64,000 nt of DNA from an uncultured Bacilli bacterium (GCA_944371525.1 CALVXP010000003.1:111-64110); one strand, 5' to 3'; positions 22,401 through 45,270 are shown, counted from the stretch's first letter. The notes: a model not told the origin generated them from the sequence alone. Program-made: numbers and translations.

Positions 22401-22599
22401 TCATTTCAGCAGCTGCAGCCTTAGTAAATGTTAAAAGCAATAATTCATTAATATGAACTCCACCTTTTAACTTACGAATAACTCTCTCACTTAAAACAGC
22501 AGTTTTCCCAGAACCTGCTCCCGCACTAACGATAATATTATTTCCTTCTTCGTTAATTGCTAAACTTTGTTCTTTTGTCCAACTAGGCATCATTTTCAC
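19477..22599 (-). CDS. addA: ATP-dependent helicase/nuclease subunit AddA
   Basis: UvrD-type motifs are present (AGAGSGKT, DEYQDT) along with a C-terminal PD-(D/E)XK motif (GIIDLM...DIIDYK). The gene overlaps the addB stop. Confidence 0.9.
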   Translation of the reverse strand: MKMMPSWTKEQSLAINEEGNNIIVSAGAGSGKTAVLSERVIRKLKGGVHINELLLLTFTKAAAAEMKQRIRKKISKEEDLLSELDMIDASYITTFDSFALSIVKKYNYLLNISPNVNIIDEAVITIKKEEIMNEIFENKYLQGDKLFLHLIDDFCVKDDKNIQKEILAISNKLDMLPNKKEYLSNYIETNFTLGKIEKDVNKYLDLIKKERDKIERICNELSSYFDSDYMNKLYESLDKLLNANTYDEIKDSLNVSIPRIPKGTSDEGKKVKEKLSDIIKNLGKMCVYENVEYIKNTILLTKDYIRAIIDIILEFDDKVNKFKFDNDAYEFNDIALLSIKLVREFPEVREEVKNSFNEIMIDEYQDTNDLQEEFISYISNNNVYMVGDIKQSIYRFRNANPNIFKNKYDNYSVNNGGIKIDLNKNFRSRREVLDNVNLMFNLIMSDLIGGADYISTHQMVFGNNAYINEGNTNQNYNIDILEYDYDKDSDFTMEEIECFIIADDIKKKVESHYQVFDKDELILRDIKYSDFAILIDRSSTFDLFKKIFEYKQIPLNILKEEKMNNDKDVYVLNNLLKFIIKIANHEYDTTFKYLFVSLMRSFIINETDDNIFKYFLSNNFKDNELYKKSYEISKKINNISVNELLNIIIKAFNFYEKLITIGNIDTSIIKIDKILDMSNSLSVLGYTPRMFSEHLDKLVKENYTMKYQVNNDFGDAVKIMTIHKSKGLEYHVCYFPNMYKRFNLRELNEKFLYNNRIGIVTPFFDEGIGETIYKTLLKNDYLLEEISEKIRLFYVAVTRAKEKMVVVLPNKDIDDLDNEVVLKDEKKEEYRTLGDFIYSIRNRLDSYITKIELDKLKMSKDYNIIKSGNFESSIEENVTKLDVKNIDISNIEIESSSFSKKMHELIDIETKNNIELGLKMHEILENTDFKNITKLDNYFYQEKIDKLVNSDLFKNIKDAKIYKEYEFIYFKDDVKYHGIIDLMLEYDNHIDIIDYKLKNVDDDKYILQLKGYQEFVRSISGKPVSLYLYSIIDSVILKIE

Positions 22600-24964
22600 C
22601 TCCTAAAAATTCGGCATTTTTATATTCTTTTAATTCAACTATATCTTTTTGTTCCATATAACATATATCATTAAAATTACAATATTTGCATCCAATGTTT
22701 TCTTTACCAATTTTTTTAGGATTTATATCAAATGAAACATCTAAAATATTATCTCTCGCTTCTTCTATTTTTTTGTCAACTAAATCAATTAAATTATCAA
22801 TTTGTTCATTATTAATAACTTTAGAATAACTATAAAATCCAGTTTTAGTTGTTTTTAAAGATTTAATCATATTGCTATTATCATAACTATCATCAAGTTC
22901 TCTTAATATTTCTGTATTATCATTACTATAACCTTGAAGTTTTAATCCTTCTTCTAACAAACTAGTATATGTATGTTTATAATCTTTAACTATTTCTTTA
23001 TTTAATATTTTTTGTAAATAAAATCCCGCTATTTCAACATTATTTATTTTTTCCATATTTTTACTTAAATATAAATATACAGGTAATTGAAGCCCTAATC
23101 CATAAATAACATTATTAATATTAATATCAGGATTTCCGGTTTTATAATCAATAATACAAACAATAGTATTATTACCTTTTTCTTCATACAATACCTTATC
23201 TATTATTCCATTAAAAGTTACTTTTACTGTACCACTTTTATCTACACAAACTTTTTCTTCATACATTGCCTTATTTAAGCTAGTATATTGATATTGTTTT
23301 TTTATTGTATCAATAACAAACTTTAAATCTTCTTTTGCTTTTTTTATAAAGTATAATTCCTTATTAGAAAACTCATATGTCTGCTTTTCTAAAAAAGTAT
23401 TATATTCTTTATCTAAGTCAAATTCTTCTGCAAATGCTTTTGACAACACTTCATGAAACAAAGTCCCTAAAATGGTCATAAATGTTTCTTCATAAGGATT
23501 TAATTTTAAAATGTTATTTAAATAATATCTAAATCCACATTTAAAATAATTATCCATACTAGTATAAGACAATGACAATTCATTTTTTATGTATTTAGTA
23601 AATTCTTCTTTGTCTATCTTTTTATACTCATTATTATATTCTAAATAATTTATATTTTTATAATTATTATATAATAATGATAAGTCTTTATCTTTTACAC
23701 CAAACTTTACTAATTTATCAATATTTGATGCTAATTTTATTTTATTTGCTTTATCAGAATAAGTATAAAATAAATTGTCTTCTTTTATTATATCAAGTTT
23801 TAATTCATCATTTAAGTTAGAAATAGTATAACTTTCTGTATTATTTGATAATTTATAAGTAATTATTAAATTTTTTATATTATTTATTTTCGAAATAATA
23901 TATTCTTTTTCCATTTTATTTTTAATTGTAGAAGTCGTTAACCCTAACCCTGATTTTAATTTATCACTTAAATATTCTTCATCTTTATATATTGTTGGAA
24001 TAATACCATAGTTAAATCCTAATATAAAAATATAATTATCATCATCTACTTCATTATCAAAACTAATTAACTTAACACTATTTTTAAGTTCTTTTGTCTT
24101 TATATTAGTATTTTTCATATCATGAATAATTAATTCTTTTACTTCCAATAAGTTGTTTGCCCATACATATTTATTACAAATATTTATTAATTTATTAATG
24201 ATATCAACATTATCTTCATTATTATCAAATTTATTTTTAATATTATCAAAAACACTATCACCATTAATATTTTCTAAAAAGTAATTACCTATTTCTGTGC
24301 TATAAATACTTCCTTCACTAGGTAATGATACAGGAATATTATAAATTTCTGAATATCTTTTCATTATTCCATAATAGTCATTAGTAAGTCCCATTATTTT
24401 TATTTTATTTATATCTATACCCTTATTTATTAAATCTGCAATATGTTCAAACACATACTCTACTTCATCTTTAATTGTCTTAAATTCATATATATTTTTA
24501 TGTTTATATTTTGGTTCTAATATAGAAACAATATTTATATCATCACTTAATTTTTTTAACATTTTTTTATCAAAATCACTAATAAAGTGATATCCATATA
24601 CAATAATTTTCTTATTTTTATATTCGTTATATAGACTAATAATATTTAATTTATTATCTACTATTTCTTTTTGTATATCTAATAATTTTTTTATTTTTTG
24701 TTCTTTAACTTCACTATCACTAACATAAATAATATTATCTAAATATATTTTAGCAACATCATATTTTATATTATATTTACTCATTAAATAAAATATTGCT
24801 TTTTCATCATAATCAAATATAATTTTTCTTCTTAATTCTTCTAATGAAATGTATTTTATATTCGTAAGAGGCTTTTCTTTTGTTACAGTAGTTATTACTT
24901 CTTCTTTAATACTACTTGGAATAACTAAAACAGTACCATCTTCAATATAGTCTAGATAACTCAC
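22583..24964 (-). CDS. addB: ATP-dependent helicase/nuclease subunit AddB
   Basis: 793 aa. The C-terminal nuclease carries an Fe-S Cys pattern (CGFRYY...CKYCNFNDIC) and an IIDYKTG motif. Confidence 0.88.
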   Translation of the reverse strand: MSYLDYIEDGTVLVIPSSIKEEVITTVTKEKPLTNIKYISLEELRRKIIFDYDEKAIFYLMSKYNIKYDVAKIYLDNIIYVSDSEVKEQKIKKLLDIQKEIVDNKLNIISLYNEYKNKKIIVYGYHFISDFDKKMLKKLSDDINIVSILEPKYKHKNIYEFKTIKDEVEYVFEHIADLINKGIDINKIKIMGLTNDYYGIMKRYSEIYNIPVSLPSEGSIYSTEIGNYFLENINGDSVFDNIKNKFDNNEDNVDIINKLINICNKYVWANNLLEVKELIIHDMKNTNIKTKELKNSVKLISFDNEVDDDNYIFILGFNYGIIPTIYKDEEYLSDKLKSGLGLTTSTIKNKMEKEYIISKINNIKNLIITYKLSNNTESYTISNLNDELKLDIIKEDNLFYTYSDKANKIKLASNIDKLVKFGVKDKDLSLLYNNYKNINYLEYNNEYKKIDKEEFTKYIKNELSLSYTSMDNYFKCGFRYYLNNILKLNPYEETFMTILGTLFHEVLSKAFAEEFDLDKEYNTFLEKQTYEFSNKELYFIKKAKEDLKFVIDTIKKQYQYTSLNKAMYEEKVCVDKSGTVKVTFNGIIDKVLYEEKGNNTIVCIIDYKTGNPDININNVIYGLGLQLPVYLYLSKNMEKINNVEIAGFYLQKILNKEIVKDYKHTYTSLLEEGLKLQGYSNDNTEILRELDDSYDNSNMIKSLKTTKTGFYSYSKVINNEQIDNLIDLVDKKIEEARDNILDVSFDINPKKIGKENIGCKYCNFNDICYMEQKDIVELKEYKNAEFLGGENDA

Positions 24965-25968
24965 TTATTATCACCATCCATAATTTCTTTAAACATTGAA
25001 CTAGCATATTTAGATATATCAGATACATCTTTCATTTTATATTTCTTACCTATATTAGTAAAATAGTCTTTCATAGTATCTGTATCAATAATATTTGATG
25101 AATATTCTTCTTCACTTAATTCTTTTCTTCCTTCTTCCCATGGAATAGTAGTATGTGTCATTTTTTCTAATATTTTACCGCTGTAAACACCAAAATTATT
25201 TATAACAGAATCTATTAATTTAAGTTCTTTTTCATTTAAAGAATCTATCTCGTTATAACTTTCAAATTCATTTTTAGAAATAGGATTATACCTATAATAA
25301 CTAAATCTATCGTAGATTTCTCGATATACAGGTCCATGTACCCAAGCTTCAGCATTATCATTAAATATAGGTTTATCAAAGAAGTAAGTAGAAAATCCCT
25401 GAATATAATATAATATTTTTTGAAGAGCAAGTGGCGTTATATCTTCCATCTTCGCAATAATATGCTTAGATATTAAATATATTTTAGATTGATCTTCTGT
25501 TAATTTAAGTTCCATAATTTTCCCAAGCGTCTTCTTATATGCTACTTTTGTTATTAGATCTTTATTTTTTTCTAAATATTCATATAAAGTATTTGGATCT
25601 TCCAATACTTTTTTTAATATATCAGAATATGCTTTTTCTGGAGTACTTCCTTCTAAGTATCTAATAATTGTTACTTCTCCCCACCCCAAAACTAGAGAAA
25701 GTGGTTTTTTCCCTATTGCGTATTTATTTAATATTTTTTCTATTTCTTTTATAGTAATAACACCATTAATTTCTTTTACTTTTTCCGAATATTCTAGCAT
25801 ATTTTGATCATATAATTTCTCTACATAAACTTCATTATTACATTTTTTACAAATAGCATAAAATTCATTAAATAACACTATTTTATTATTAATTATTTCT
25901 TCTTTAATTCTTTTCTTTATTTTATATTCCACTAATTCGTTACATATTTCACAAAAAGTTTTACTCAC
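24961..25968 (-). CDS. Antitoxin-like protein: MqsA/YgiT-type zinc ribbon + HTH + DUF4065 (SocA/Panacea) domain
   Basis: The N-terminus is CEICN...CKKCN. The middle is ITIKEIEKILNKYAIGKKPLSLVLGWGEVTIIRYLEG. The DUF4065-like part is LQKILYYIQGFSTYFFDKPIFNDNAEAWVHGPVYREIY. The stop overlaps the addB start by 4 nt. Confidence 0.7.
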   Translation of the reverse strand: MSKTFCEICNELVEYKIKKRIKEEIINNKIVLFNEFYAICKKCNNEVYVEKLYDQNMLEYSEKVKEINGVITIKEIEKILNKYAIGKKPLSLVLGWGEVTIIRYLEGSTPEKAYSDILKKVLEDPNTLYEYLEKNKDLITKVAYKKTLGKIMELKLTEDQSKIYLISKHIIAKMEDITPLALQKILYYIQGFSTYFFDKPIFNDNAEAWVHGPVYREIYDRFSYYRYNPISKNEFESYNEIDSLNEKELKLIDSVINNFGVYSGKILEKMTHTTIPWEEGRKELSEEEYSSNIIDTDTMKDYFTNIGKKYKMKDVSDISKYASSMFKEIMDGDNK

Positions 25969-25981
25969 TTATATCATCTCC

Positions 25982-26374
25982 CTATATAAACATATATTCT
26001 AAATTATGAAGTGCTTCATGAAATGAAACAACAATTGCTGTTCTTTTAACTTCAATATAATTAATTTTTAAATATACTTGCATATCTTGCCTTTGTCCTT
26101 TTAAATCTACAAGTTTAAGTTTTGGAGCAAATACATATAATTTCTCATTTTCATATCCTGGATGCTCATTAAAAAGTACTGACGAAAAATCTTCTACTGT
26201 AAGTTTACTTATAATGTTTTTAAGTATTTTACTGTTTATAGCAAATTTTTTACAAAATTCCATATTTTTACCGCGATTAGATAAAACAAGATATCCATTA
26301 GTTATGATATTCTTTTTTATCTTTTGTAAAAGTATTTCTACTTCTTCTTTTGTTACTTCACATACCAAATTCAA
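25982..26374 (-). CDS. MqsR-family-like toxin
   Basis: LTVEDFSSVLF...QVYLKINYIEVKRTAIVVSFHEA parallels E. coli MqsR LSESDFYKSMT...QVYLKITVIHDVLIVSFKEK (recalled from memory). The toxin gene precedes the antitoxin gene, as in mqsRA. The start is uncertain; TTG at 26372-26374, 8 nt after GGGAG, is my best guess. Confidence 0.6.
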   Translation of the reverse strand: MNLVCEVTKEEVEILLQKIKKNIITNGYLVLSNRGKNMEFCKKFAINSKILKNIISKLTVEDFSSVLFNEHPGYENEKLYVFAPKLKLVDLKGQRQDMQVYLKINYIEVKRTAIVVSFHEALHNLEYMFI

Positions 26375-26398
26375 GAATATCACTCCCTATCTATATTC

Positions 26399-34695: not shown

Positions 34696-35337
34696 TTATA
34701 TATTTCTTTCTAACCACTCATATAAATATTTATCTTTAAAAGCATGAGATGTTAAAAAATGATTATCATCTTTAATTATTTTTAATTCTATATTATCTAC
34801 ATTCATTTTCTTTAATTTATCATATGCATCATAGCTTTCTTTAACATCTATAACATCATCCCTATCTCCATGATAAATTAAAATTTTTTTTTCTAATACA
34901 TTTATTAAAGTATCTGGTATTGCTAACATTATACCTCCTGATACTGATACTATACCTTTAAATAAATTTGGTCTAGATATTATATAATTCCATGCTCCAA
35001 AAGCTCCCATACTACTTCCTAATATGCAAACTCTTTCTTTATCATATTTATAATCCTTATATACTTCTACCATAATCCTTTCTACATCTCTAAGATGATA
35101 ATCCCAAAAGTTAGAATAACTACATTGTGGAGCTATTACTATGTAAGGTATATCATATATATTCATATATTTAGGTAAAGCATACTTTTCCACATCTTCT
35201 ATATGATTACCTCTTTCCCCTATTCCATGTAAAAATAATAACAAAGGCATATTGTCGACTACTTTTTCTGGATAATATATTATATAATTCATTTTCTCAT
35301 TATTATTAATAAGTATTTGTTTATATTTTTTTAACAT
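34696..35337 (-). CDS. Alpha/beta-hydrolase esterase (carboxylesterase/PHB-depolymerase-like)
   Basis: LLLFLHGIGERG, the GSSMG nucleophile elbow, GDRDDV and DDNHF are present, giving a Ser-Asp-His triad. Confidence 0.75.
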   Translation of the reverse strand: MLKKYKQILINNNEKMNYIIYYPEKVVDNMPLLLFLHGIGERGNHIEDVEKYALPKYMNIYDIPYIVIAPQCSYSNFWDYHLRDVERIMVEVYKDYKYDKERVCILGSSMGAFGAWNYIISRPNLFKGIVSVSGGIMLAIPDTLINVLEKKILIYHGDRDDVIDVKESYDAYDKLKKMNVDNIELKIIKDDNHFLTSHAFKDKYLYEWLERNI

Positions 35338-36019
35338 ATATTTTCTCCTTTTTTTCTATTGCATTTTTAATTTCAATATTATTTATAATATTTTGTAAAT
35401 TATTAAAAAATAATCCCATATGTACTCCATCTTGAAAAGCATGATTTACTAATAAAGAAATATCTATTATATAACTATTATTATCTTCATAATATTTTCC
35501 CCAACAAATTTTAGGTTTACTATTTTTTTCCGAATAATCTATTGCATCCTTAAAATTTGAAAACGGAATCCAAGGAATACAAGTAATATTTACTTTATTC
35601 ATATCATCTAAATTGGGAATTTTATAATACATTTCCCCGTTAGAAGCATCATCAATTGCTTTTTGGAATGTATTTATAAATTGTTGAAAATCATTTGAAA
35701 ATTTTATATATCTTGTAAAATTCAATTCATTATCTTCATTCAATGTAGTTACAGAAACTGCCAAATCTTCATATTTATAAATATATTGCTTCCCATTTTC
35801 TTTCCCGTATCCATAATGAAAAGCATCTATTTCATTTAAAGATGATAATACATAATACGACATAGCAGCATAAAATGAAATATTATAATATTTACAATAA
35901 TTAACAAGATTTGTTACATCAATTTTGGTTACAATTCCTGTATAAGGATCTTCATAATTAGAAAATATATTATATGCTATTTTTCTTTTCCAATTATTAA
36001 TTTCTATTTGCTTTCTCAT
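35321..36019 (-). CDS. Chloramphenicol-acetyltransferase-family (CAT fold) acyltransferase, substrate unknown
   Basis: INNWKRK...ITCIPWIPFSNF...GKYYEDNNSYIIDISLLVNHAFQDGVHMG aligns with the CAT segment ...[30 protein letters not shown]. The catalytic His is retained. Confidence 0.75.
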   Translation of the reverse strand: MRKQIEINNWKRKIAYNIFSNYEDPYTGIVTKIDVTNLVNYCKYYNISFYAAMSYYVLSSLNEIDAFHYGYGKENGKQYIYKYEDLAVSVTTLNEDNELNFTRYIKFSNDFQQFINTFQKAIDDASNGEMYYKIPNLDDMNKVNITCIPWIPFSNFKDAIDYSEKNSKPKICWGKYYEDNNSYIIDISLLVNHAFQDGVHMGLFFNNLQNIINNIEIKNAIEKKEKIYVKKI

Positions 36020-38339
36020 TTTTCACCTTTCTTTTTAAACATAAAACTTCACTTTCTCTAGAATAATCACCGTTTTTTACTAAACATTCTAATATTTTTC
36101 TTCTGTTTAGATCAAAAATTCCTAATGAATCTTCGTATGGATTTAAACTATATGGATTTCTCCAACTGTATGGACTAGGAAAATATAATCCTTCTATAAA
36201 TTCAAAAAAATGTTTATAGTCAATGGCCCCATGATTCGGCATAAACATTTGACTAATTCTATTAACACTTGGATATCTAACAACAATTATTTTGTTAACG
36301 TCTATTTCTACATCATATAATACTGTTAGTGCTATTTGCATAGTTTTGCCAGTTAATAAGTTATCATCAAATATAATGTATTTTTTTCTCTTATCAATTC
36401 CTAAAAGTTCAATACCACCATTTTCAAAAATATTAAAAAATCTTAAATCTAATGACTGTTTTTTTGAATAACCTGTTACATTTTTATTAAATTTTAATAC
36501 AGATACATCGCTTATCCTATTATTAATTGATTTCATCAAAATAGGTAGTTCTAATCCACCATAGCAAATGCCACAAATTCCTTTATTATAAATATCTGAA
36601 TCTTTCTGAAGTGTTAAATAACAGGTTATGAAGTTTTCAGCAAAATTATCAATTTCTCTATATGCTCTAAAATCCTTAGAATAATTTTCTTTTTCTATAC
36701 TTTTCTCAAAATCCATTTTAAATTTATTTATAATTAAAATTACATTTTTTATCAATAATTCAATCTCTTTACAATTAATAATATAATTATTATCAAAAGA
36801 AATTTTTCCCATTAGTTTTTCTACTACTAACAAACTTGCATAAGTTTTATAAATAATTGTATCTTTATTTATGTTTTCAAAATTTAACATTATATTTTTT
36901 TCCACATTTCTACTAATTATTTGCTGATTTAATATAATTAACAAACAATTTCTAATATTATCAATTAAACCTAATATCATTTTCATATTGCAATAATCAT
37001 TTAAATCAATTTTAGAATTTATAGCTTCTAATGCTCCTACATAAAAACTTATATTATTATTTAACCATTCTATAATCATTTCCTTTGTAGTTGTATCTTC
37101 TCTAGTTTCTTCATTATGAGATCTTTGCGATAAAAAATAATAATATGTTTGTGATCCCCTTAATAATATGTTTTGATTATCAAACATTGCATAACATAAT
37201 GATGATTCTTTTTTAGTTAACCATAGTTTTTTCAATAAATTATCATTTGATATAGAAATCCATTCATACATAGGAATTTTTACACTTCCACTAGAAGCAT
37301 CAAATAAACTATTAACTCCATCAATATTTTGAAATTTTAAATTTACTAAATTATTAAAATATGAAATTTTTTTAATTTTACCCAAATTCATATCTTTCTC
37401 TATTTTAGCATAAGCTTGGGTATATTCATTTTCTGTCGCATGTTCTAAACAAATTGTTGGTAATAACTTAACTTTGTTTATTAAAGATAATGTTGCGTTT
37501 ACTCCTGTTATTATTTTTCCATTTTCAATTACAGGAAAACACTTATCAATTTCACCACTTACCTTATCTACACTAAATCCTTGTGGACAATTTAACATGG
37601 AATAATCATTTCCATACCTATCTCCACAATCTCCTATTCTTAACATTGAATTTTGAGGAATTCCAATGATCCTTTCTGCAATATTAATAGCTGTATTTTT
37701 TGTAGCAGTACCAATTTGTAAAATTCGTTTTCCTTCATGTATACCCATTGTTAAATTTAAATTTGAATTTTTTGTATCGGCAATCAAGGAAGCAATCATG
37801 TCAATTATTTTATTAGCAATTTGTTCATCATCTATTAAAACTAACAACCTTATATTAATTATAATATCATTACTCAAATCTTTTGAATAAGAAATTTGAC
37901 AACAATTTTTTAATGATGTTGTCTCTAAAATCTTTTTAATTTTTTCATTTAATTCTCTTAAACATGTTAAATCTTCTGGGGTAGATATATATTCACTCAC
38001 ATTAAAAATTTGACTGCTATTTTTACTAGTCATAAATATTCTAGCTCCATCATTTGTAAGCGCATACATTCTTTGTAATTGTCTATCTGTCACTCCATAT
38101 TTATTTTTTAAATCATTAACAATTTCCTTTGATAAATCATTTAGACCAGTTTCTCCTCTACCAGTTATAAAAACCACAGTAATATGTTTTTTTAATATAT
38201 TGGCTAACATAGGTAAAACACGAACATCAATTTTCTTTGAATTGTTTTCTGTTAATGTTCCATCTATATCAAAACAAACAGCATTATATTTTTGATTTAA
38301 AGATTTTCCGTAATTATTTATTAATTCTTCATTTATCAT
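35997..38339 (-). CDS. Three-part fusion: HAD-IIB phosphatase + uncharacterised middle region + phosphoribosyltransferase (PRTase) domain
   Basis: The HAD part has VCFDIDGTLTEN, ITGRG and IGDCGDRYGNDYSML. The C-terminal PRPP-binding loop is KKYIIFDDNLLTGKTMQ. About 300 aa in the middle carry no motif I recognise. Confidence 0.7.
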   Translation of the reverse strand: MINEELINNYGKSLNQKYNAVCFDIDGTLTENNSKKIDVRVLPMLANILKKHITVVFITGRGETGLNDLSKEIVNDLKNKYGVTDRQLQRMYALTNDGARIFMTSKNSSQIFNVSEYISTPEDLTCLRELNEKIKKILETTSLKNCCQISYSKDLSNDIIINIRLLVLIDDEQIANKIIDMIASLIADTKNSNLNLTMGIHEGKRILQIGTATKNTAINIAERIIGIPQNSMLRIGDCGDRYGNDYSMLNCPQGFSVDKVSGEIDKCFPVIENGKIITGVNATLSLINKVKLLPTICLEHATENEYTQAYAKIEKDMNLGKIKKISYFNNLVNLKFQNIDGVNSLFDASSGSVKIPMYEWISISNDNLLKKLWLTKKESSLCYAMFDNQNILLRGSQTYYYFLSQRSHNEETREDTTTKEMIIEWLNNNISFYVGALEAINSKIDLNDYCNMKMILGLIDNIRNCLLIILNQQIISRNVEKNIMLNFENINKDTIIYKTYASLLVVEKLMGKISFDNNYIINCKEIELLIKNVILIINKFKMDFEKSIEKENYSKDFRAYREIDNFAENFITCYLTLQKDSDIYNKGICGICYGGLELPILMKSINNRISDVSVLKFNKNVTGYSKKQSLDLRFFNIFENGGIELLGIDKRKKYIIFDDNLLTGKTMQIALTVLYDVEIDVNKIIVVRYPSVNRISQMFMPNHGAIDYKHFFEFIEGLYFPSPYSWRNPYSLNPYEDSLGIFDLNRRKILECLVKNGDYSRESEVLCLKRKVKNEKANRN

Positions 38340-38349
38340 AAAAATCTCC

Positions 38350-38829
38350 TTATAAAATTTTCTCTAAAGTTTTTATTGTCATAAATTCTTGTGTAGAAAC
38401 TTGTTCCTCATTAAAATAAATACCTGTCCCCCCTTTTTGTTTCCAATCTACAAGATTCTTTATGCTGTCATCTATTAAAATTTCTCCATTATTTGGTAAA
38501 TATATTTGACTCTTTTTTATATGTGGTGGAACAAATAATATTGGAATTTTTATTTTTCTACTTCTTAATGCCTTTGTTTTTGCTTCCATTTCAAGCAATG
38601 TATGAATTTTAGTTAAAACTGCCAATTGTTTAGTTCTAGTTTGACCATCTAATATATAATCGATTGCATTATTTATAACTTTGGCTTCATCTAACAATTG
38701 AAACCAATCAAGATTGTCAAAAAATTCATTCCAGGTAAGATTAGGATTTTCATTTTTCCTTTCAGCAACTCTTTTTTCTGTATCAAAAATTACGCCATCA
38801 AAATCAATAAAAATTTTTTTGTTATTCAT
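38350..38829 (-). CDS. Small HAD-superfamily nucleotidase (NT5C / deoxyribonucleotidase-like)
   Basis: KIFIDFDGVIFDT...LIDDS. The start is the ATG at 38827-38829, after GAGGTG. Confidence 0.65.
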   Translation of the reverse strand: MNNKKIFIDFDGVIFDTEKRVAERKNENPNLTWNEFFDNLDWFQLLDEAKVINNAIDYILDGQTRTKQLAVLTKIHTLLEMEAKTKALRSRKIKIPILFVPPHIKKSQIYLPNNGEILIDDSIKNLVDWKQKGGTGIYFNEEQVSTQEFMTIKTLEKIL

Positions 38830-38851
38830 AAAAAACACCTCATTTAAATAT

Positions 38852-38860
38852 ATTATAGCA
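38852..38860 (-). promoter_or_regulatory. Extended -10 element (TGCTATAAT) between the WYL gene and the enzyme genes
   Basis: The minus strand reads TGCTATAAT, about 20 nt upstream of the small-HAD start. There is no good -35. Confidence 0.35.
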
Positions 38861-38886
38861 TATATATAGGAAGTATTTGGTCTATA

Positions 38887-39480
38887 TTATTTTTGATTCA
38901 ATTTTATTCTACTGATTTCAAAATGTCTTATATCATCTCGTAATTCACAATAAGCTGTTACATAAAATTGATCATCATATTTAAAAATTTGTAATGGATG
39001 AATTATTCTTTCCTGCCATTCCTGATTTAAACTTCTATATAAAATTTTTAATGGATTTTTATTTGTAATTGCATCATTTAACGCAAAATATAATTTTGAT
39101 TTATCTTTAACTGAATAATCTAAAAAATATTTACTTTTTTCTTCTTCTATATCATTAGACATTTGCACTTTATTAATTATTTTTTCATATTTTTTGATAT
39201 TTTCATAATTTATTTCTTTTAAGATATTATCTACATTATTTAATATTTGCAAATCATATTTATTAAAATGATTATACTGATTTTTAGGGTTCAATATATA
39301 ATACCCTCCATTAGGTCCCATAAATGTTTCTATTGAAATTCCCGCTTGTTCTAATTCAGCTTTATAATACCTAACCATACGTTCGGTAATACCTATTTTT
39401 TCAGCTAAATCTTTAACACTATATTTATTTCCTGTGTTTAAATAATTTAACATTTCAATAGCATTTGAAATTTTTCCCAT
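38887..39480 (-). CDS. HTH + WYL domain transcriptional regulator (short; no obvious WCX extension)
   Basis: The N-terminal wHTH reads YSVKDLAEKIGITERMVRYYKAELEQAGISIE. The C-terminal WYL-like part reads ILYRSLNQEWQERIIHPLQIFKYDDQFYVTAYCELRDDIRHFEISRI. Confidence 0.8.
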   Translation of the reverse strand: MGKISNAIEMLNYLNTGNKYSVKDLAEKIGITERMVRYYKAELEQAGISIETFMGPNGGYYILNPKNQYNHFNKYDLQILNNVDNILKEINYENIKKYEKIINKVQMSNDIEEEKSKYFLDYSVKDKSKLYFALNDAITNKNPLKILYRSLNQEWQERIIHPLQIFKYDDQFYVTAYCELRDDIRHFEISRIKLNQK

Positions 39481-39688: not shown

Positions 39689-39821
39689 ATTTTACAAAAT
39701 ACTAAAATATTTATTTTAAAAATTTCATGTTCTTTAGTTTATTAAAATTTACTTAAATTTGATAGAATTTAATTGGTTGCTCGTCTAGAAATACACCTAA
39801 TATTTTAGTATTTTGTAAAAT
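39689..39821. repeat. Perfect 23-bp inverted repeat separated by 87 bp
   Basis: ATTTTACAAAATACTAAAATATT at 39689-39711 has its exact reverse complement at 39799-39821. The element lies in the 628-bp gap between the DUF2075 cassette and the WYL gene. Confidence 0.85.
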
Positions 39822-40091: not shown

Positions 40092-40126
40092 TATTAAAAA
40101 AGAGCAACTCAATTAATGTTGTTCTT
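40092..40126 (-). terminator. Intrinsic terminator of the MazG-HEPN-DUF2075 cassette
   Basis: On the minus strand, AAGAACAAC-N9-GUUGCUCUU (one G-U pair) is followed by UUUUUAAUAU. The loop contains the TGA stop. Confidence 0.6.
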
Positions 40127-41986
40127 AAGATATTTTTGTAATTTTTTATCAGTGCAATAAACATAGCAACCTTTCATACCTCTAGTCATTAATGTTCTAT
40201 AAGTATTTTTTATTATATTATCCGCTATTTTATCAGCAACTTCTTTCCCTTGATCTTTAGCAATCTTTTTAATTCCATTTAATGAAGTATCAGTCTTAGC
40301 TCTTTTTGTATAATCTGTTATTATATGACCATTTTCATATCGTAAATCATCACCTATAATTACCCCAACATAATCAAATTCTAATCCTTGGCATGTATGA
40401 ATACAACCAACTTCATTGATTGATTCTGAATCAATAGCCCAAGTACTAGAATTGCCTAAATTCCAGCTCATTCCAAAATTATATTCTGGTATTTCAATAT
40501 CGTGTACATCACTATTATTTTTCCCTTCAGATATCCAATTCCAACAATAGCCTGCAACTATTCTAGATTTATTATTAGTTCTATTTTTTTTCTCAATCAA
40601 TCTTCTAACTTCATTAGGATCATCTAATACTCTAAAATCATAATCAAATCCATCTATATCAAAGTTAGCAGTATCTTTAATATCCAATACTCTATCAAGC
40701 CATGCAATATAACCATCTGATCCATTACATCGAAATTGACTATCCAAATCAAATGTATAAATACCTGCTTTTTGTTCTTTGGCAAATATTTTAATTAAAT
40801 CTTCACTACCAATATCTTTTAAAGTGACTTTTTGATTTTCATCAATAAAGAATATAGAAAATTTACTAGCATTAATAATTTCTTTAATTTGATTTTCACC
40901 TTTATTTTGAAACATACCTGATTTAGCATTTAATCTATGAGCTTCATCTACTACTAAACAATCTAACTTATTTCTCTCTTCATCTATAAAACTACCAGAT
41001 CCTTGAAACAAATGATTAATATAAGTTTGGGTATAATCTCCTCTTAACTTACTAGAATATACACTTCTTGGTGCAGCATTTTTTGTAACATAAAAACATG
41101 TCATATTTCTATTATTTAATTCAACTAATAAATTAACTGCTAAAACGGATTTACCAGTACCTGGTCCACCTCTAACTATCATTACATTTTTATCATTAGC
41201 AGACACTGTATCAATTGCATTTCTTAAAGCATATTCATAAACAATCTTTTGATTATCTATCATATAGAATTCTTTATTACCTTTTAGCATATTTTTTAAA
41301 GAATCCTGTAACATTTTTGATGGTCTGATTTTTCCATGATCTATTTCATATAAAATATCCCCATCATCACCATCTTCGATATATTTCTTAATAAAATTTC
41401 TTAATTTAATAACATCATTATGTCCAAATAAAGGTGCTTTATCAGTGTATTCTTTATAATTATTTGATAATAGTGTATCACCATCTTCAAAATAATAATT
41501 ATGAAGATATGCACATGGAACAACATTAATATCTTTTAATTGAACTGATTCGTTATAGTCTTTAATTAGATTTGCGTAAGTCATGGCTTGATAAGAAGGA
41601 TGATTAACATCTCTTAATCCTCCACCAGTATAAGTATTAACTTTATATATACCATCCATTTCTTTAACTTCAGTTACCTTATCCCATTGTTTTAACTCTA
41701 TTATTACAACATTAGATTTATCCTTATTATAACCAGACATCATAAAGTCAATTCTACACCCAGTTGGAGGTATATTGTATTCTATAGCTATACCAGTATT
41801 ATTCGGTATATCATTATCAGAGAGTACACCTCTCATATATTGCATAGAATTTTTCCATGAATTAAATTCTGGTGCACTAGGCCTTTTCTTTATAACTTCA
41901 ATATATTTATTTCTTATTTTATCAGCTATTATTCCTAAGTCTACATCATCAATAAAACCTGATTTAATGCCCTCGTATACTAACAT
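40109..41986 (-). CDS. DUF2075-type protein: N-terminal PD-(D/E)XK nuclease-like domain + SF1-like P-loop helicase/ATPase
   Basis: CRIDFMMSGYNKDKSNVVIIELKQW gives D...E-x-K. GGPGTGKS is Walker A and LVVDEAHRL is Walker B. HTCQGLEFDYVGVIIG and YRTLMTRGMKGCYVYC are typical DUF2075 C-terminal motifs. Confidence 0.8.
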   Translation of the reverse strand: MLVYEGIKSGFIDDVDLGIIADKIRNKYIEVIKKRPSAPEFNSWKNSMQYMRGVLSDNDIPNNTGIAIEYNIPPTGCRIDFMMSGYNKDKSNVVIIELKQWDKVTEVKEMDGIYKVNTYTGGGLRDVNHPSYQAMTYANLIKDYNESVQLKDINVVPCAYLHNYYFEDGDTLLSNNYKEYTDKAPLFGHNDVIKLRNFIKKYIEDGDDGDILYEIDHGKIRPSKMLQDSLKNMLKGNKEFYMIDNQKIVYEYALRNAIDTVSANDKNVMIVRGGPGTGKSVLAVNLLVELNNRNMTCFYVTKNAAPRSVYSSKLRGDYTQTYINHLFQGSGSFIDEERNKLDCLVVDEAHRLNAKSGMFQNKGENQIKEIINASKFSIFFIDENQKVTLKDIGSEDLIKIFAKEQKAGIYTFDLDSQFRCNGSDGYIAWLDRVLDIKDTANFDIDGFDYDFRVLDDPNEVRRLIEKKNRTNNKSRIVAGYCWNWISEGKNNSDVHDIEIPEYNFGMSWNLGNSSTWAIDSESINEVGCIHTCQGLEFDYVGVIIGDDLRYENGHIITDYTKRAKTDTSLNGIKKIAKDQGKEVADKIADNIIKNTYRTLMTRGMKGCYVYCTDKKLQKYLKNNIN

Positions 41987-41989
41987 ATT

Positions 41990-42565
41990 TTACTTCTCCT
42001 TATCAAAATTCAAACTAAAATGCAACCCCAATTTATCATCATCATATTCCTTACTAAGTTTAACACATTCTTCCATAATATAATTCAATATCTTCTTAGA
42101 TAATAATATCTGTGTATTAAGGAACTCAAAATTCTTATCATATATATCTTCTATTTCTAATAAATATTTAATTTCTATATGTCCATACATTTTATCTCTT
42201 AAAGTATTTATATTTTCAATAGTATCTTTATAATTAGATAATTCATTTCTTATCTTTTTCACTTCTTTATTTAATTTTTCTTTTCCTTCCTGTTCACACA
42301 AATTTAATAATTTCCAAATTGAAAGACTCTTAGGATTATTATCAAATATATTTCCCATTCCAATTACAATTCTATATCTCATAGAATCAAGAATAGTTGA
42401 AAACAATGAAGGAAAATCATTAAGTTTTTCTAATATCCTATTATCTTCTAAATTCGTACAAATAAAATATTGTTTAATTGCTTCTCGAATATCTTTACAT
42501 TGAAAATATATAGTAAATAAAACATTTTGCAACCTCGTTGCTTCATCACCCTTAATATACAACAT
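41990..42565 (-). CDS. HEPN-domain protein (AbiU2/AbiV-like)
   Basis: The protein is all-helical by composition and carries an Rx4-6H motif, LRDKMYGH. Its stop is 3 nt before the DUF2075 start. The start is uncertain; the ATG at 42565 is preferred over the track's GTG at 42634, which overlaps the MazG gene. Confidence 0.55.
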   Translation of the reverse strand: MLYIKGDEATRLQNVLFTIYFQCKDIREAIKQYFICTNLEDNRILEKLNDFPSLFSTILDSMRYRIVIGMGNIFDNNPKSLSIWKLLNLCEQEGKEKLNKEVKKIRNELSNYKDTIENINTLRDKMYGHIEIKYLLEIEDIYDKNFEFLNTQILLSKKILNYIMEECVKLSKEYDDDKLGLHFSLNFDKEK

Positions 42566-42572
42566 ATGCACT

Positions 42573-42887
42573 CTATAATTTATTATACTTTGTACTATTT
42601 CCTTTTGCTTTTTCAACAGGATACTTCTTAGCACTTATTTTCATTTTTTCTAAAACTATTTCTTTAGGATCTACTCCAATTTGATGACATAATAAAATAC
42701 AATAATTCATAACATCTGCAATTTCATACTTTAACTCATTTTTATCATAATTGTTATTCCATTGAAAACATTCTAATAACTCTCCCGCTTCAATTACTAT
42801 GCTTTTGGCTAAATTTTCAGGTGTATTAAATTGTAACCAATCTCTTTCTTCTGCAAATTTAACTATTTTACTTTCTAATTCTTTCAT
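42573..42887 (-). CDS. MazG-like all-alpha nucleoside-triphosphate pyrophosphohydrolase (DCTPP1/RS21-C6-like)
   Basis: FAEERDWLQFNTPENLAKSIVIEAGELLECFQW...EIADVMNYCILLC...KKYP, in a 104-aa protein. Confidence 0.8.
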   Translation of the reverse strand: MKELESKIVKFAEERDWLQFNTPENLAKSIVIEAGELLECFQWNNNYDKNELKYEIADVMNYCILLCHQIGVDPKEIVLEKMKISAKKYPVEKAKGNSTKYNKL

Positions 42888-42906
42888 AAGATATCACCTA
42901 TAAGTT

Positions 42907-42915
42907 ATTATATCA
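42907..42915 (-). promoter_or_regulatory. Extended -10 promoter element (TGATATAAT) for the MazG-HEPN-DUF2075 cassette
   Basis: The minus strand reads TGATATAAT, about 20 nt upstream of the MazG ATG. An AGGTGA RBS follows. Confidence 0.45.
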
Positions 42916-43087
42916 TAAAATTTTAAATTTCCATTATTGCAGACCAAAAAATCTATATATTTCTTTATACAATGCCTATTTTTTATTATGAAATCTTACA
43001 AATTTACGCAAAAATGTAAAATTTATAAAATTAAATGTGTAACTAAAGTCATTTTTAATAACATTATAAATCGTCACAATTCTTTAT

Positions 43088-43121
43088 AAATAAAGAAAAA
43101 ATGAGAGCCACGAGGGCTCTC
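43088..43121 (-). terminator. Intrinsic terminator (recG and/or the candidate sRNA)
   Basis: A GC-rich 7-bp stem, GAGAGCC/GGCUCUC, with a 5-nt loop is followed by AUUUUUUCUUUAUUU. Confidence 0.8.
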
Positions 43122-43188
43122 TTCAGGGGGTTTTGGTTGAATCACTCCTACATTTTAGTTCGTAGAAAGCGGTCATATTATCTATGAC
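43090..43188 (-). ncRNA. Candidate small RNA (about 100 nt) with its own promoter, a C-rich single-stranded stretch and a strong terminator
   Basis: On the minus strand: TTGTAT (43218-43223), 17-nt spacer, TACAAT (43195-43200). The transcript would contain GUCAU-N7-AUGAC, CUAC-N10-GUAG and ...CAACCAAAACCCCCUGAA..., and would end in GAGAGCC-CUCGU-GGCUCUC plus a U-run. Confidence 0.35.
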
Positions 43189-43269
43189 ATTATCATTGTA
43201 ATATATTACCAAATAAAATACAATACTTTTTTTAACACTTTACATTTTATTTTTTTAGAATGTAAACTA

Positions 43270-45270
43270 TTAGTCAAGATACTCTGTTTTCATAAGTTCT
43301 TGCTTGACACTATCGTAAAGTCCTGTTTTATCATTTAATATCTCATCAATATAATAATCAGCATCTTCTTTAGCCTTTAACATCATCTTAAAATCTCTAT
43401 TAACATTAGCAAGAACAAGTCCTGTTTCTCCACTTTGTCTTATACCAAACAAATCACCTTCACCCCTATTTTGGAAATCATATTCACTAATTTCAAATCC
43501 ATCGTTACATCTTTCTAACATTTTAAGTCTCTCTTGATATTCTTTAGCAATTAATATGCAATAACTTTGAGTATCTCCTCTTCCTACTCTTCCTCTTAAC
43601 TGATGTAAAGTAGATAGTCCAAATAAATTAGCATTAAATATAACTATCATACTGGCATTAGGTACATTGACACCAACTTCTATTACTGTTGTAGATATTA
43701 ATATATCTATTTTTTTCTTCTCAAAGTCTGTCATAACATTACTCTTATCTTTTGAGTCCATCTTACCATGTACAGATCCTATCTTACATATCTTACCAAA
43801 TGCTTTCTTCATCTTTTCTTCTAAATCAATTACGCTTTCTTTTTCATCACTATCTTCATCAATTGAAGGGGCAATTACATATATTTGGTGTCCCTTATCT
43901 AACTCCTCTTTCATTAGATTTAAAACATCATACATATCTTTTTCTTTTTTAAAGTATGTTATTATCTCTTTTCTTCCAACTGGTTTAGTCTTAATACTAG
44001 ATACATCCATATCTCCATATATAGTAAGAGCATATGTTCTTGGAATTGGAGTAGCACTCATCGATAAAATATCTGGTGTCTCTCCTTTATTTTTGAAAGT
44101 ATCTCTTTGATTTACACCAAACCTATGTTGTTCATCGGTTATAACTAATCCTAGATTCTTATATTTTATTTGTTCTTGAATAAGAGATTGTGTTCCAATT
44201 ATTAAATCAATTTCTCCACTCTCTAACTTTTCATATATTTCTTCTTTTTTCTTTTTTGAAGTAGATGATGTAAGTAATTCTATATTCATTTTTTCATCTT
44301 TAAATAATTCTTGGGCATTTAAATAATGTTGATTTGCAAGTATTTCTGTAGGTACCATCATTGCAGTTTGATAGCCCGCTAGAAAGTTTCCATAACTAGC
44401 GATAAATGCTATAACTGTTTTACCACTTCCAACATCACCTTGTAAAAGTCTATTCATTCTTTTAGTGCTATTTAAGTCTTTAATAATATCTTCTTCGGCT
44501 TTTAGTTGGTCAATAGTTAATTTAAATGGTAACTTACTTATAAATTCATTTATTTTATCTTGACTAATACTTCTTGATATTGCTTTCTTATCATTATTTA
44601 TCTTTAATTTCATATAATTAATTTTTAATAAATACATAAATAATTCTTCATATTTAAGTCTTTGTCTTGCTTTTTTTAAAGATAATATATCACTTGGAAA
44701 ATGAACTTCATATAAAGCATCATTAATATTAAATAAATTATATTTTTCTATAATACTAGTTGGTAATATATCATTTTCTTTATCTTTATTAAGAAAAGCA
44801 CTTGATATAAACTTTGATATATTTTTTGAAGACAAACCACTAGTAGAATGATATACTGCTTCTATTTTAGGTTCTATAGGTAGCTTTTCAAATCTTACTT
44901 CACTAGCTACAATTGTATTTTTAACTTTATCATATTTACCTATTATCGTTATATCTTTACCTGACTTTAATTCATCATATAAATACACTTGATTATAAAT
45001 ACTAATATTTAAAATAGTCTTCTTATTACTAATTCTAAATATCATTTTTTTAAGTCCTCTATTTAAATAGATAATAGTAGGACTTCCTTCTACTACTCCA
45101 TCAATTACTACTTTTGATCCATCTTCTAAATTGGTAATATCACTTCTTTTTAATATATCATATCTATATGGATAAAATCTTATTAAATCATTTTGATTAT
45201 GAATATGAAGTTTCCCTAATAACTCTGCTGTTTTAGGTCCTATTCCTTGTATACTTTCTAAATCATTCAT
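43270..45270 (-). CDS. recG: ATP-dependent DNA helicase RecG
   Basis: A wedge domain is followed by LLQGDVGSGKT, DEQHRFG, and QLRGRVGRG. Confidence 0.93.
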   Translation of the reverse strand: MNDLESIQGIGPKTAELLGKLHIHNQNDLIRFYPYRYDILKRSDITNLEDGSKVVIDGVVEGSPTIIYLNRGLKKMIFRISNKKTILNISIYNQVYLYDELKSGKDITIIGKYDKVKNTIVASEVRFEKLPIEPKIEAVYHSTSGLSSKNISKFISSAFLNKDKENDILPTSIIEKYNLFNINDALYEVHFPSDILSLKKARQRLKYEELFMYLLKINYMKLKINNDKKAISRSISQDKINEFISKLPFKLTIDQLKAEEDIIKDLNSTKRMNRLLQGDVGSGKTVIAFIASYGNFLAGYQTAMMVPTEILANQHYLNAQELFKDEKMNIELLTSSTSKKKKEEIYEKLESGEIDLIIGTQSLIQEQIKYKNLGLVITDEQHRFGVNQRDTFKNKGETPDILSMSATPIPRTYALTIYGDMDVSSIKTKPVGRKEIITYFKKEKDMYDVLNLMKEELDKGHQIYVIAPSIDEDSDEKESVIDLEEKMKKAFGKICKIGSVHGKMDSKDKSNVMTDFEKKKIDILISTTVIEVGVNVPNASMIVIFNANLFGLSTLHQLRGRVGRGDTQSYCILIAKEYQERLKMLERCNDGFEISEYDFQNRGEGDLFGIRQSGETGLVLANVNRDFKMMLKAKEDADYYIDEILNDKTGLYDSVKQELMKTEYLD

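Follow-up and report, generated by a model that had tools for sequence, protein, structure and literature searches.

What is the function of a cassette in which genes for a MazG-like nucleoside triphosphate (NTP) pyrophosphohydrolase, a HEPN protein and a DUF2075 helicase are packed together, and do the three genes belong to one system? This question is raised by positions 40,092 to 42,915 of a 64,000-nucleotide stretch of DNA from an uncultured Bacilli bacterium (GCA_944371525.1 CALVXP010000003.1:111-64110; the whole stretch is referred to as the window), for which a preliminary description had proposed a combined sensing and effector module against phages. A comparison of the cassette with its relatives reveals that the conserved unit is the pair of MazG and nuclease-DUF2075 genes, as a MazG gene is adjacent in most loci of a census based on the DUF2075 gene and the middle gene varies; the HEPN gene appears to be a rare occupant that is specialised for the slot between them. 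With modest confidence, we favour the explanation that the cassette is a co-transcribed, horizontally mobile, layered anti-phage operon built on this two-gene core. It is a plausible, unvalidated defence operon: the comparisons below show what the domains are, that their catalytic motifs are intact, how the genes are linked and how they evolve, whereas the defence function, the substrates and any coupling are inferred. The three open reading frames (ORFs) are arranged in tandem on the minus strand with gaps of 7 and 3 nt, in agreement with the tight packing described previously:

42573..42887, minus strand: gene 1, MazG-like pyrophosphohydrolase (104 amino acids (aa); PF12643)
41990..42565, minus strand: gene 2, the slot gene, HEPN_AbiU2 protein (191 aa, ATG start; PF18734)
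40109..41986, minus strand: gene 3, nuclease-like N-terminus followed by a DUF2075/SLFN-group-3 superfamily 1 (SF1) helicase (625 aa; PF09848)

A conserved pair and a variable slot

The MazG-HEPN-DUF2075 arrangement occurs far beyond chance: at 16 of 16 loci encoding a HEPN relative, MazG lies immediately upstream and DUF2075 immediately downstream. For gene 3, over 8000 relatives received a score, with an identity of at least 91% throughout the best 120, and 80 metagenome loci carrying gene 3 were recovered, 70 of them with enough flanking sequence to judge. MazG adjoins DUF2075 in 62 of these 70 informative loci. It lies directly upstream, with a gap of -4 to 37 nt, in 20 of them; in 27 it is upstream but separated from DUF2075 by an insert of 223-3561 nt, and in 15 it is directly downstream. 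No MazG is adjacent in the other 8. HEPN_AbiU2 is found in 3 of the 27 loci with an insert, and 35 of the 62 pairs are without a middle gene, which indicates that the core does not need one. The unit of three genes proposed in the preliminary description is therefore confirmed in part: the trio stays together wherever the HEPN gene occurs, but it is not itself the conserved system, the core of which is the pair.

Where ORFs can be called, the insert is one same-strand ORF that abuts or overlaps both flanking genes (the exception, L040, has two ORFs), and slot genes lie 2-15 nt from, or overlap, both flanks and have no promoter of their own. About 20 unrelated families occupy the slot. In addition to HEPN_AbiU2, these include an Mrr-type type IV methyl-directed restriction enzyme (5.7e-55), a PLD-helicase-DUF3427 type IV enzyme (4.6e-225) accompanied by a NUDIX protein, the defence-associated reverse transcriptase DRT RT_UG13b (2.6e-113), a PtuA-like ATPase (4e-26), a DUF4145/PD-T7-4-like protein, HNH and AIPR proteins, two membrane proteins, and unannotated proteins of 57 to 369 aa. 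The site between the core genes may be a recombination-prone slot in which different lineages hold different defence genes.

The same arrangement bears on a less probable, although possible, reading of the trio as an integrated system, in which DUF2075 would act as sensor/motor, MazG as regulator and the slot gene as an exchangeable effector activated by the core (here the HEPN RNase), resembling the swapped effectors of CBASS, Thoeris or Lamassu. The single, same-strand, promoterless and closely packed slot genes are consistent with this reading, as is the HEPN subfamily, which is otherwise very rare and was found only in the slot, at each of the 16 loci. Additionally, many occupants are effector-like (HEPN, HNH, Mrr_cat, membrane proteins), some (57-128 aa) are too small for stand-alone systems, and the three-part layout with HNH in the slot recurs at only 25% identity in plasmids of the B. 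cereus group, in the order NTP pyrophosphohydrolase, HNH protein and DUF2075 helicase. However, an effector activated by the core is difficult to reconcile with the 35 pairs that have no slot gene, with occupants that are complete stand-alone defence enzymes (a 1041-aa type IV enzyme plus NUDIX; DRT UG13b), and with the conserved nuclease motif that gene 3 itself carries.

Several further loci touch on the content of the slot. The slot proteins of L039 (254 aa) and L109 (369 aa) contain Rx4-5H-like strings and were considered as HEPN proteins; Pfam lends this no support and the A1 hidden Markov model (HMM) matches none of them, so they are not claimed as such. An identical DUF2075 protein (P0145) is accompanied by a 128-aa coiled-coil/zinc-ribbon slot gene or by a 57-aa derivative of it (L113/L115 versus L114/L116); these are not two different slot genes, the 57-aa gene being an in-frame deletion derivative of the 128-aa gene. 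Extended operons (L105-L108, P0083; L040; L096) combine a type IV enzyme (PLD-helicase-DUF3427) or a protein with DUF3578, a modified-DNA reader domain, and NUDIX/MutT with MazG and DUF2075, and enzymes for modified DNA or for cleaning of the nucleotide pool thus occur together repeatedly.

The MazG-DUF2075 pair is also present in Archaea and in distant Bacillota. MazG lies 5 nt upstream of DUF2075 on a plasmid of the archaeon Halalkalicoccus (L098), and MutT, DUF3578, MazG and DUF2075 stand beside type I restriction-modification (R-M) genes on a Priestia plasmid (L096). Relatives of gene 3 on archaeal plasmids are 57% (L094, Methanosphaera) and 52% (L098) identical to it, which points to transfer between domains of life. 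On viral contigs, only distant relatives are found (23-33% identity), with a MazG gene nearby in 4 of 5. Tandem DUF2075 paralogues that are 48% and 32% identical to gene 3 lie beside R-M genes, with no recognisable MazG, in L099 (a Hymenobacter plasmid) and L095. Decaying, frameshifted copies were also observed: L013 (Clostridium sp. CP091739.1) has such a copy of all three genes, and L095 (a Marivirga plasmid) has one of a DUF2075 gene, which lies beside an annotated pyrophosphohydrolase.

Domains and motifs of the three proteins

Pfam searches support the three domain assignments of the preliminary description (MazG-like, HEPN_AbiU2 and DUF2075), and the motifs that it quoted are all found: EERDW, EAGELLECFQW and EIADV; LRDKMYGH; and D..ELK, GGPGTGKS, VVDEAH and CQGLEFDYVGVI. 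The principal motifs of genes 2 and 3 are located as follows:

42179..42199, minus strand: Rx5H motif of gene 2, R123-H129 (invariant residues)
41492..41986, minus strand: PD-(D/E)xK-like core of gene 3, residues 1-165 (E69, D80, E97-x-K99; conservation and AlphaFold2 (AF2) model)
40148..41191, minus strand: helicase/NTPase domain of gene 3 (Walker A K279, Walker B D347-E348; Pfam)

Gene 1 matches PF12643 (MazG-like) with 67.3 bits (cut-off 27, 1.4e-18), and among proteins of solved structure in the PDB it is closest to the pyrophosphatase 4qgp (6e-17) and to DCTPP1/RS21-C6 of mouse and human (1.7e-15), in line with the earlier classification as a 104-aa DCTPP1/RS21-C6-type MazG. The metal-binding residues of the ExxE...ExxD motif, E33, E36, E55 and D58, are 100% identical in 61 distinct MazG sequences linked to DUF2075, and a search of PHROGs returned nothing beyond a weak pyrophosphatase match. 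DCTPP1-type enzymes are house-cleaning enzymes. The eukaryotic DCTPP1, a dCTP pyrophosphatase of 170 aa, is homologous to gene 1 and has the same metal-binding residues, whereas gene 1 (104 aa) lacks its N- and C-terminal extensions. In the operon that we favour, MazG would act on the pool of deoxynucleoside triphosphates (dNTPs), most likely on non-canonical or modified dNTPs.

Gene 2 matches PF18734 (HEPN_AbiU2) with 58.8 bits (cut-off 26.8, E 6.6e-16). Its Rx5H motif reads R123-D-K-M-Y-G-H129, in which R123, D124 and H129 are invariant in 24 homologues, and the AF2 model is an all-helical bundle with a predicted local distance difference test (pLDDT) score of 84. The earlier comparison with AbiU2/AbiV-type proteins with an Rx4-6H motif is thus upheld for AbiU2 and not for AbiV, since Pfam matches AbiU2 only. 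PDB sequence and profile searches with the HEPN family gave nothing meaningful. The start of gene 2 is placed at 42565 because all 24 homologues begin there (MLYI/T/N-G); a GTG start at 42634, inside gene 1, appears in a mechanical ORF list and was rejected, as 24 of 24 homologues start at ATG. The family is rare. In a set of 5.8 billion proteins it makes up 25 clusters; another set, of 1.84 billion, contains 165 representatives at E<=1e-3, with 18 remaining at E<=1e-10; and in 185,579 species genomes it occurs at 5 loci, one of them pseudogenised. No relative of the HEPN gene was found in a scan of viral contigs.

Gene 3, described earlier as a 625-aa DUF2075 protein with Walker A and B motifs, matches PF09848 (SLFN-g3_helicase/DUF2075) over the full length of the model (362 bits, 3.9e-108, residues 266-613), and both motifs are present. 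PF09848 has been placed among the abortive-infection (Abi) protein families by Hochhauser et al. (PMC10121019). In the helicase region, conservation of GGPGTGK and DExH is at least 95%. Conservation extends to the N-terminus, where E69, D80 and ELKQW reach at least 95% in 84 sequences, and E69, D80, E97-L-K99-Q-W, HPSYQ and PCAxLHNY show no variation among 46. The AF2 model of the N-terminal domain (pLDDT 84) has the order helix-strand-strand-strand, with D80 opening one strand and ExK in the next, an arrangement that, in the model, is the canonical PD-(D/E)xK layout.

A pairwise BLASTP comparison of gene 3 with the Nhi-like protein of B. cereus FSL H8-0482, which has been verified experimentally, gives 21% identity over 327 aa (E 1e-7), and the alignment pairs EY..D..ExK of gene 3 with EYEI..PDIL..IECK of Nhi-like, in addition to the Walker A/B motifs. 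This sequence alignment is the best positive evidence for the putative nuclease domain. The N-terminal nuclease core claimed previously thus stays putative: the conservation of E69, D80 and ExK, the order of secondary structure in the model and the alignment with Nhi-like are in its favour, and the lack of a Pfam, PDB or significant Foldseek match is against it. Residues 1-260 have no Pfam match (no nuclease hit) and no PDB sequence match, and PDB sequence and profile searches with gene 3 gave nothing meaningful. Among the PADLOC models, PDC-S41, AbiO and Nhi match gene 3 partially, the latter two over residues 237-449 only (48-52 bits).

Boundaries, exchange and surroundings of the cassette

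The signals at the ends of the cassette are the following:

43103..43121, minus strand: intrinsic terminator of recG, the upstream boundary of the cassette (7-bp stem with 5 G-C pairs, then a T-run)
42907..42915, minus strand: extended -10 promoter-like element TGATATAAT (sequence and conserved register)
42894..42899, minus strand: ribosome-binding site AGGTGA of gene 1 (sequence; (A)GGTGAT is kept in most related cassettes)
40092..40126, minus strand: weak hairpin with T6 that overlaps the stop codon of gene 3, the claimed terminator (folding energy)

The promoter-like element reported earlier at 42907-42915 is present, and TGnTATAAT is kept in the same register in 8 of 12 related cassettes, with divergent sequence 5' of it. 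Among cassettes from unrelated contexts, nucleotide homology sets in at ~42,920-42,970 and ends at ~40,116-40,125. The conserved element and these limits indicate that the cassette is a discrete unit with its own promoter-like element. A promoter scan was uninformative, because 49 sites were found versus 44 expected in DNA of 24% G+C. AAGGAG lies 5' of gene 3.

The terminator claimed at 40092-40126 did not withstand analysis. The hairpin has an 8-bp A/T-rich stem with one mismatch, a 9-nt loop and T6 (-4.5 kcal/mol), which is at chance level (z = -0.78; 34 of 200 shuffles fold equally well), and it was missed by the terminator scan. The sole strong terminator nearby, 43121..43103, is assigned to recG. 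No direct repeats that would mark an insertion flank the cassette, and Rfam has no match in 38.8-43.4 kb. A foreign origin is not supported by base composition (26% G+C in the cassette versus 24% in the window).

The identities of the three genes to their counterparts in other cassettes point to mosaic histories. Between the window and L012, MazG is 71%, HEPN 38% and DUF2075 90% identical; between L011 and L053, the values are 94%, 73% and 65%. The number of synonymous substitutions per site (dS) is 0 in HEPN and 0.7-1.0 in the flanks for L001 versus L010, and 0 in HEPN and 0.10-0.19 in the flanks for the window versus L015, which indicates that the HEPN gene moved recently between diverged cassettes. 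With both pairs pooled, HEPN shows 9 non-synonymous and 0 synonymous codon differences, as against 14 and 33 in MazG. In deeper pairs, the ratio of non-synonymous to synonymous rates (dN/dS) is 0.22-0.40 for HEPN, 0.02-0.15 for MazG and 0.06-0.09 for DUF2075, with the exception of 0.29 for DUF2075 in L011-L053; overall, the HEPN ratio exceeds that of the flanking genes four- to eightfold. The pattern in HEPN, as judged from these substitution rates, is that of a conflict gene; positive selection on it is suggestive only, because the codon counts are small.

This mobility could also mean that the MazG/DUF2075 junction is simply a favoured site of insertion or recombination, with HEPN as an independent passenger (a solo Abi protein or toxin) and the trio not a system at all, which we consider rather unlikely. 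The mosaic histories, the movement of HEPN between cassettes with diverged flanks and the approximately 20 unrelated occupant families would be expected of such a hotspot, as would the additional defence genes that occur upstream of MazG (type IV enzyme + NUDIX; MutT + DUF3578). However, a passenger family should be encountered elsewhere too, and the HEPN family was not found outside the slot in the searches made. The occupants also lack promoters and terminators of their own and are packed for translational coupling, and a solo HEPN toxin that lacks a cognate antitoxin would have to be controlled in another way.

In the window, the cassette lies just after the recG terminator, and a 630-nt spacer of 16% G+C followed by an HTH-WYL gene lies on its 3' side. 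The 3' flank of recG (43103-45270) is a recurrent site for MazG-X-DUF2075 (L005, L006, L014, L039, L114 and L116), in lineages whose RecG is only 49-74% identical to that of the window; in L006, an integrase separates recG from the cassette. L014 shows synteny to the window, at 87% nucleotide identity over 12 kb. Other cassettes adjoin clusters of HATPase_c_3/Z1/DUF4420/AIPR genes (which we take to be the Mza system), methylase + Mrr, Fic, AAA_13 and KAP NTPase genes, and type I and LlaJI-type R-M genes, and some are carried on integrase/MobC/Mob_Pre elements. Related cassettes are thus found in neighbourhoods of defence and mobile genes (R-M, Fic, KAP NTPase, integrases).

The HTH-WYL regulator (38887-39480) was considered as part of the cassette and rejected, being absent beside the cassette at the other loci checked except L014. 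In L015, the cassette (95%) is joined directly to a PfkB-like gene, and 34.7-40.1 kb of the window is absent, so the WYL block is a variable insert in its own right and does not belong to the cassette. This tight block (34696-39480, minus strand) encodes an alpha/beta hydrolase, a CatA-like acetyltransferase, a 780-aa fusion of HAD-IIB and phosphoribosyltransferase domains, a 162-aa HAD/NT5C-like protein and the HTH-WYL regulator, the only one of its proteins that PADLOC matches; it is a second variable insert, with domains of nucleotide metabolism. L014 keeps 36.0-40.1 kb of the block and is without 34.7-36.0 kb. A perfect 23-nt inverted repeat (39689-39711 / 39799-39821, arms 87 nt apart), situated within the spacer of 16% G+C some 210-340 nt 5' of the start of the WYL gene, could be an operator or the remnant of a small mobile element. 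Elsewhere in the window, a gene for a 335-aa SocA/Panacea antitoxin-domain protein (24961-25968) lies directly downstream of AddAB-like helicase-nuclease genes (19477-24964); it adjoins a 133-aa ORF without annotation (25982-26383), with which it may form a toxin-antitoxin or defence pair.

Relation to known systems and significance

The literature contains the pair. In Table S2 of Millman et al. 2022 (10.1101/2022.05.11.491447), a candidate system named 'Pyrophosphatase' consists of a pyrophosphatase and a DUF2075 protein, that is, a MazG-type gene beside a DUF2075 gene with the same N-terminal domain as gene 3. For SG192 of this candidate, which is orthologous to the pair in the window, the DUF2075 protein is 53% identical to gene 3 over 402 aa (E 6e-157) and the pyrophosphatase is 42% identical to gene 1, but SG192 consists of two genes with nothing between them, whereas the window holds an HEPN_AbiU2 gene in the slot. 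The remark in the preliminary description that the trio is not a named system is therefore correct to the extent that no description of the trio was found, whereas the pair is already listed as SG192/SG193. Full-text literature searches, the coverage of which is incomplete and not proof of absence, returned no description of MazG + HEPN + DUF2075 or of a variable slot. The variable slot and the HEPN-bearing variant are thus the new points, the pair being a known prediction.

Several observations weigh against a defensive role. SG192 (Bacillus firmus LK28) is marked 'x', with no defence detected, and SG193 (B. thuringiensis Lr3/2) is marked 'Cloning failed' in the same table (10.1101/2022.05.11.491447), which makes the pair a known prediction without a demonstrated phenotype. 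MazG is listed by DefensePredictor among predicted defence domains that have never been validated experimentally (PMC13092281). PADLOC has no model that matches gene 1 or gene 2 and no full-length Nhi or AbiO match for gene 3, the N-terminus of which is unmatched. Foldseek searches against the PDB returned only generic helical bundles for the model of gene 2 (best E 0.13) and nothing significant for the N-terminal domain of gene 3 (best E 0.27; MspJI 0.74); as a result, the HEPN assignment relies on the HMM and the motif, and sequence motifs and HMMs are the basis for both proposed folds, nuclease and HEPN. Finally, the neighbourhood in the window is mostly housekeeping (recG, AddAB-like and metabolic genes).

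Such observations raise the question of whether the cassette serves a role other than immunity, such as DNA repair, sanitation of the nucleotide pool, or addiction to and stabilisation of a mobile element, with HEPN as the toxin and a neighbour as the antidote. The house-cleaning role of DCTPP1-type enzymes, the negative outcome for SG192 against phages and the failure to clone SG193, the frequent location of cassettes on integrative or mobilisable elements and the position beside recG among housekeeping genes all agree with this, yet we regard it as very unlikely. The distribution is patchy across domains of life (57% identity in the Methanosphaera plasmid), restriction or Abi genes are repeated neighbours, pseudogenised copies exist (L013, Marivirga), gene 3 is homologous to a verified defence enzyme, and a fast-evolving middle gene is typical of conflict genes.

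A verified defence enzyme related to gene 3 is Nhi-like of B. cereus FSL H8-0482, in which an N-terminal E..D..ExK nuclease precedes a DUF2075 SF1 helicase, an architecture matched by gene 3 with its nuclease-like N-terminus, and which is marked 'v', for verified, as SG141 in Table S2 of Millman et al. (10.1101/2022.05.11.491447). A single gene suffices for Nhi-like, whereas the subfamily of gene 3 is almost always paired with MazG. The very low identity places gene 3 in the same superfamily as Nhi-like but in a separate subfamily, and its pairing with MazG, seen in 62 of 70 loci, speaks against a plain classification as single-gene Nhi-like. Nhi of Staphylococcus epidermidis (SERP2475) and lactococcal AbiO are likewise single-protein defences that combine a nuclease with a DUF2075/SF1B helicase; they resemble gene 3 over only a section of the helicase region, with no similarity detected between the N-terminal domains, and neither a MazG nor a HEPN partner is reported for them in the literature examined. 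Nhi targets phage replication intermediates.

According to Stokar-Avihail et al. (10.1101/2022.08.27.505566), phages escape Nhi-like through loss of a phage DNA methylase, which suggests modification-dependent restriction. This dependence fits the type IV enzymes and modified-DNA readers (DUF3427, DUF3578) in and around the slot. Enzymes with DUF3427 have been noted previously as neighbours of DUF2075 (PMC6765204). In the layered operon that we favour, the core would consist of a DCTPP1-like MazG dNTP pyrophosphatase and a nuclease-helicase distantly related to the verified Nhi-like, and the latter would restrict phage DNA, probably modified DNA or replication intermediates.

The Pfam family of gene 2 is named after AbiUii (HEPN_AbiU2) of the Lactococcus lactis AbiU system (AbiUi + AbiUii). 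AbiUii adjoins a nuclease-like defence protein; AbiUi alone gives resistance, and AbiUii, the founder of the AbiU2 family, lowers it (PMC13064643). AbiUi is not a DUF2075 protein and AbiU has no MazG, whereas gene 2 lies between MazG and DUF2075, and none of the three cassette proteins has an AbiU match in PADLOC. A functional parallel may be PrrC, an anticodon nuclease whose gene is embedded in, and co-expressed with, the EcoprrI type I restriction operon. PrrC is triggered by restriction inhibitors, as cited in 10.1101/2022.08.27.505566. The protein families are unrelated to those of the cassette, but an abortive-infection RNase gene within a DNA-restriction operon offers a model for HEPN as a back-up layer. 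By this analogy, the rare HEPN_AbiU2 RNase in the slot of the window most likely adds a second, abortive-infection layer to the core.

A more far-reaching reading, which taken whole seems to us unlikely, describes MazG-[X]-DUF2075 as a modular immune chassis. The nuclease-helicase would be a modification-dependent restriction motor, and MazG would destroy modified dNTPs, whether produced by the phage or recycled from its degraded DNA, and so shield the host, the DNA of which these dNTPs would otherwise mark as a target. The slot would be a dedicated exchange site for second-layer effectors or sensors swapped by recombination (HEPN RNase, HNH, Mrr, membrane proteins, reverse transcriptase, type IV restriction enzymes), and phage inhibitors would exert diversifying selection on the HEPN allele.

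The MazG + DUF2075 pair is distributed very widely among Bacteria and Archaea, many copies from gut and rumen metagenomes sharing an identity of at least 91%, and its record in tests consists so far of one negative and one failure. The type IV enzymes, NUDIX proteins and modified-DNA readers near the operon, together with the methylase dependence of Nhi-like, suggest why a standard phage panel may miss a phenotype: the target of the system may be modified DNA or modified dNTPs. The HEPN-bearing version in the window is an intact, clonable example. With its approximately 20 unrelated genes, the slot represents a natural experiment on the exchange of modules in defence operons, and its unannotated occupants, of 57 to 369 aa, provide a handle for new defence genes.

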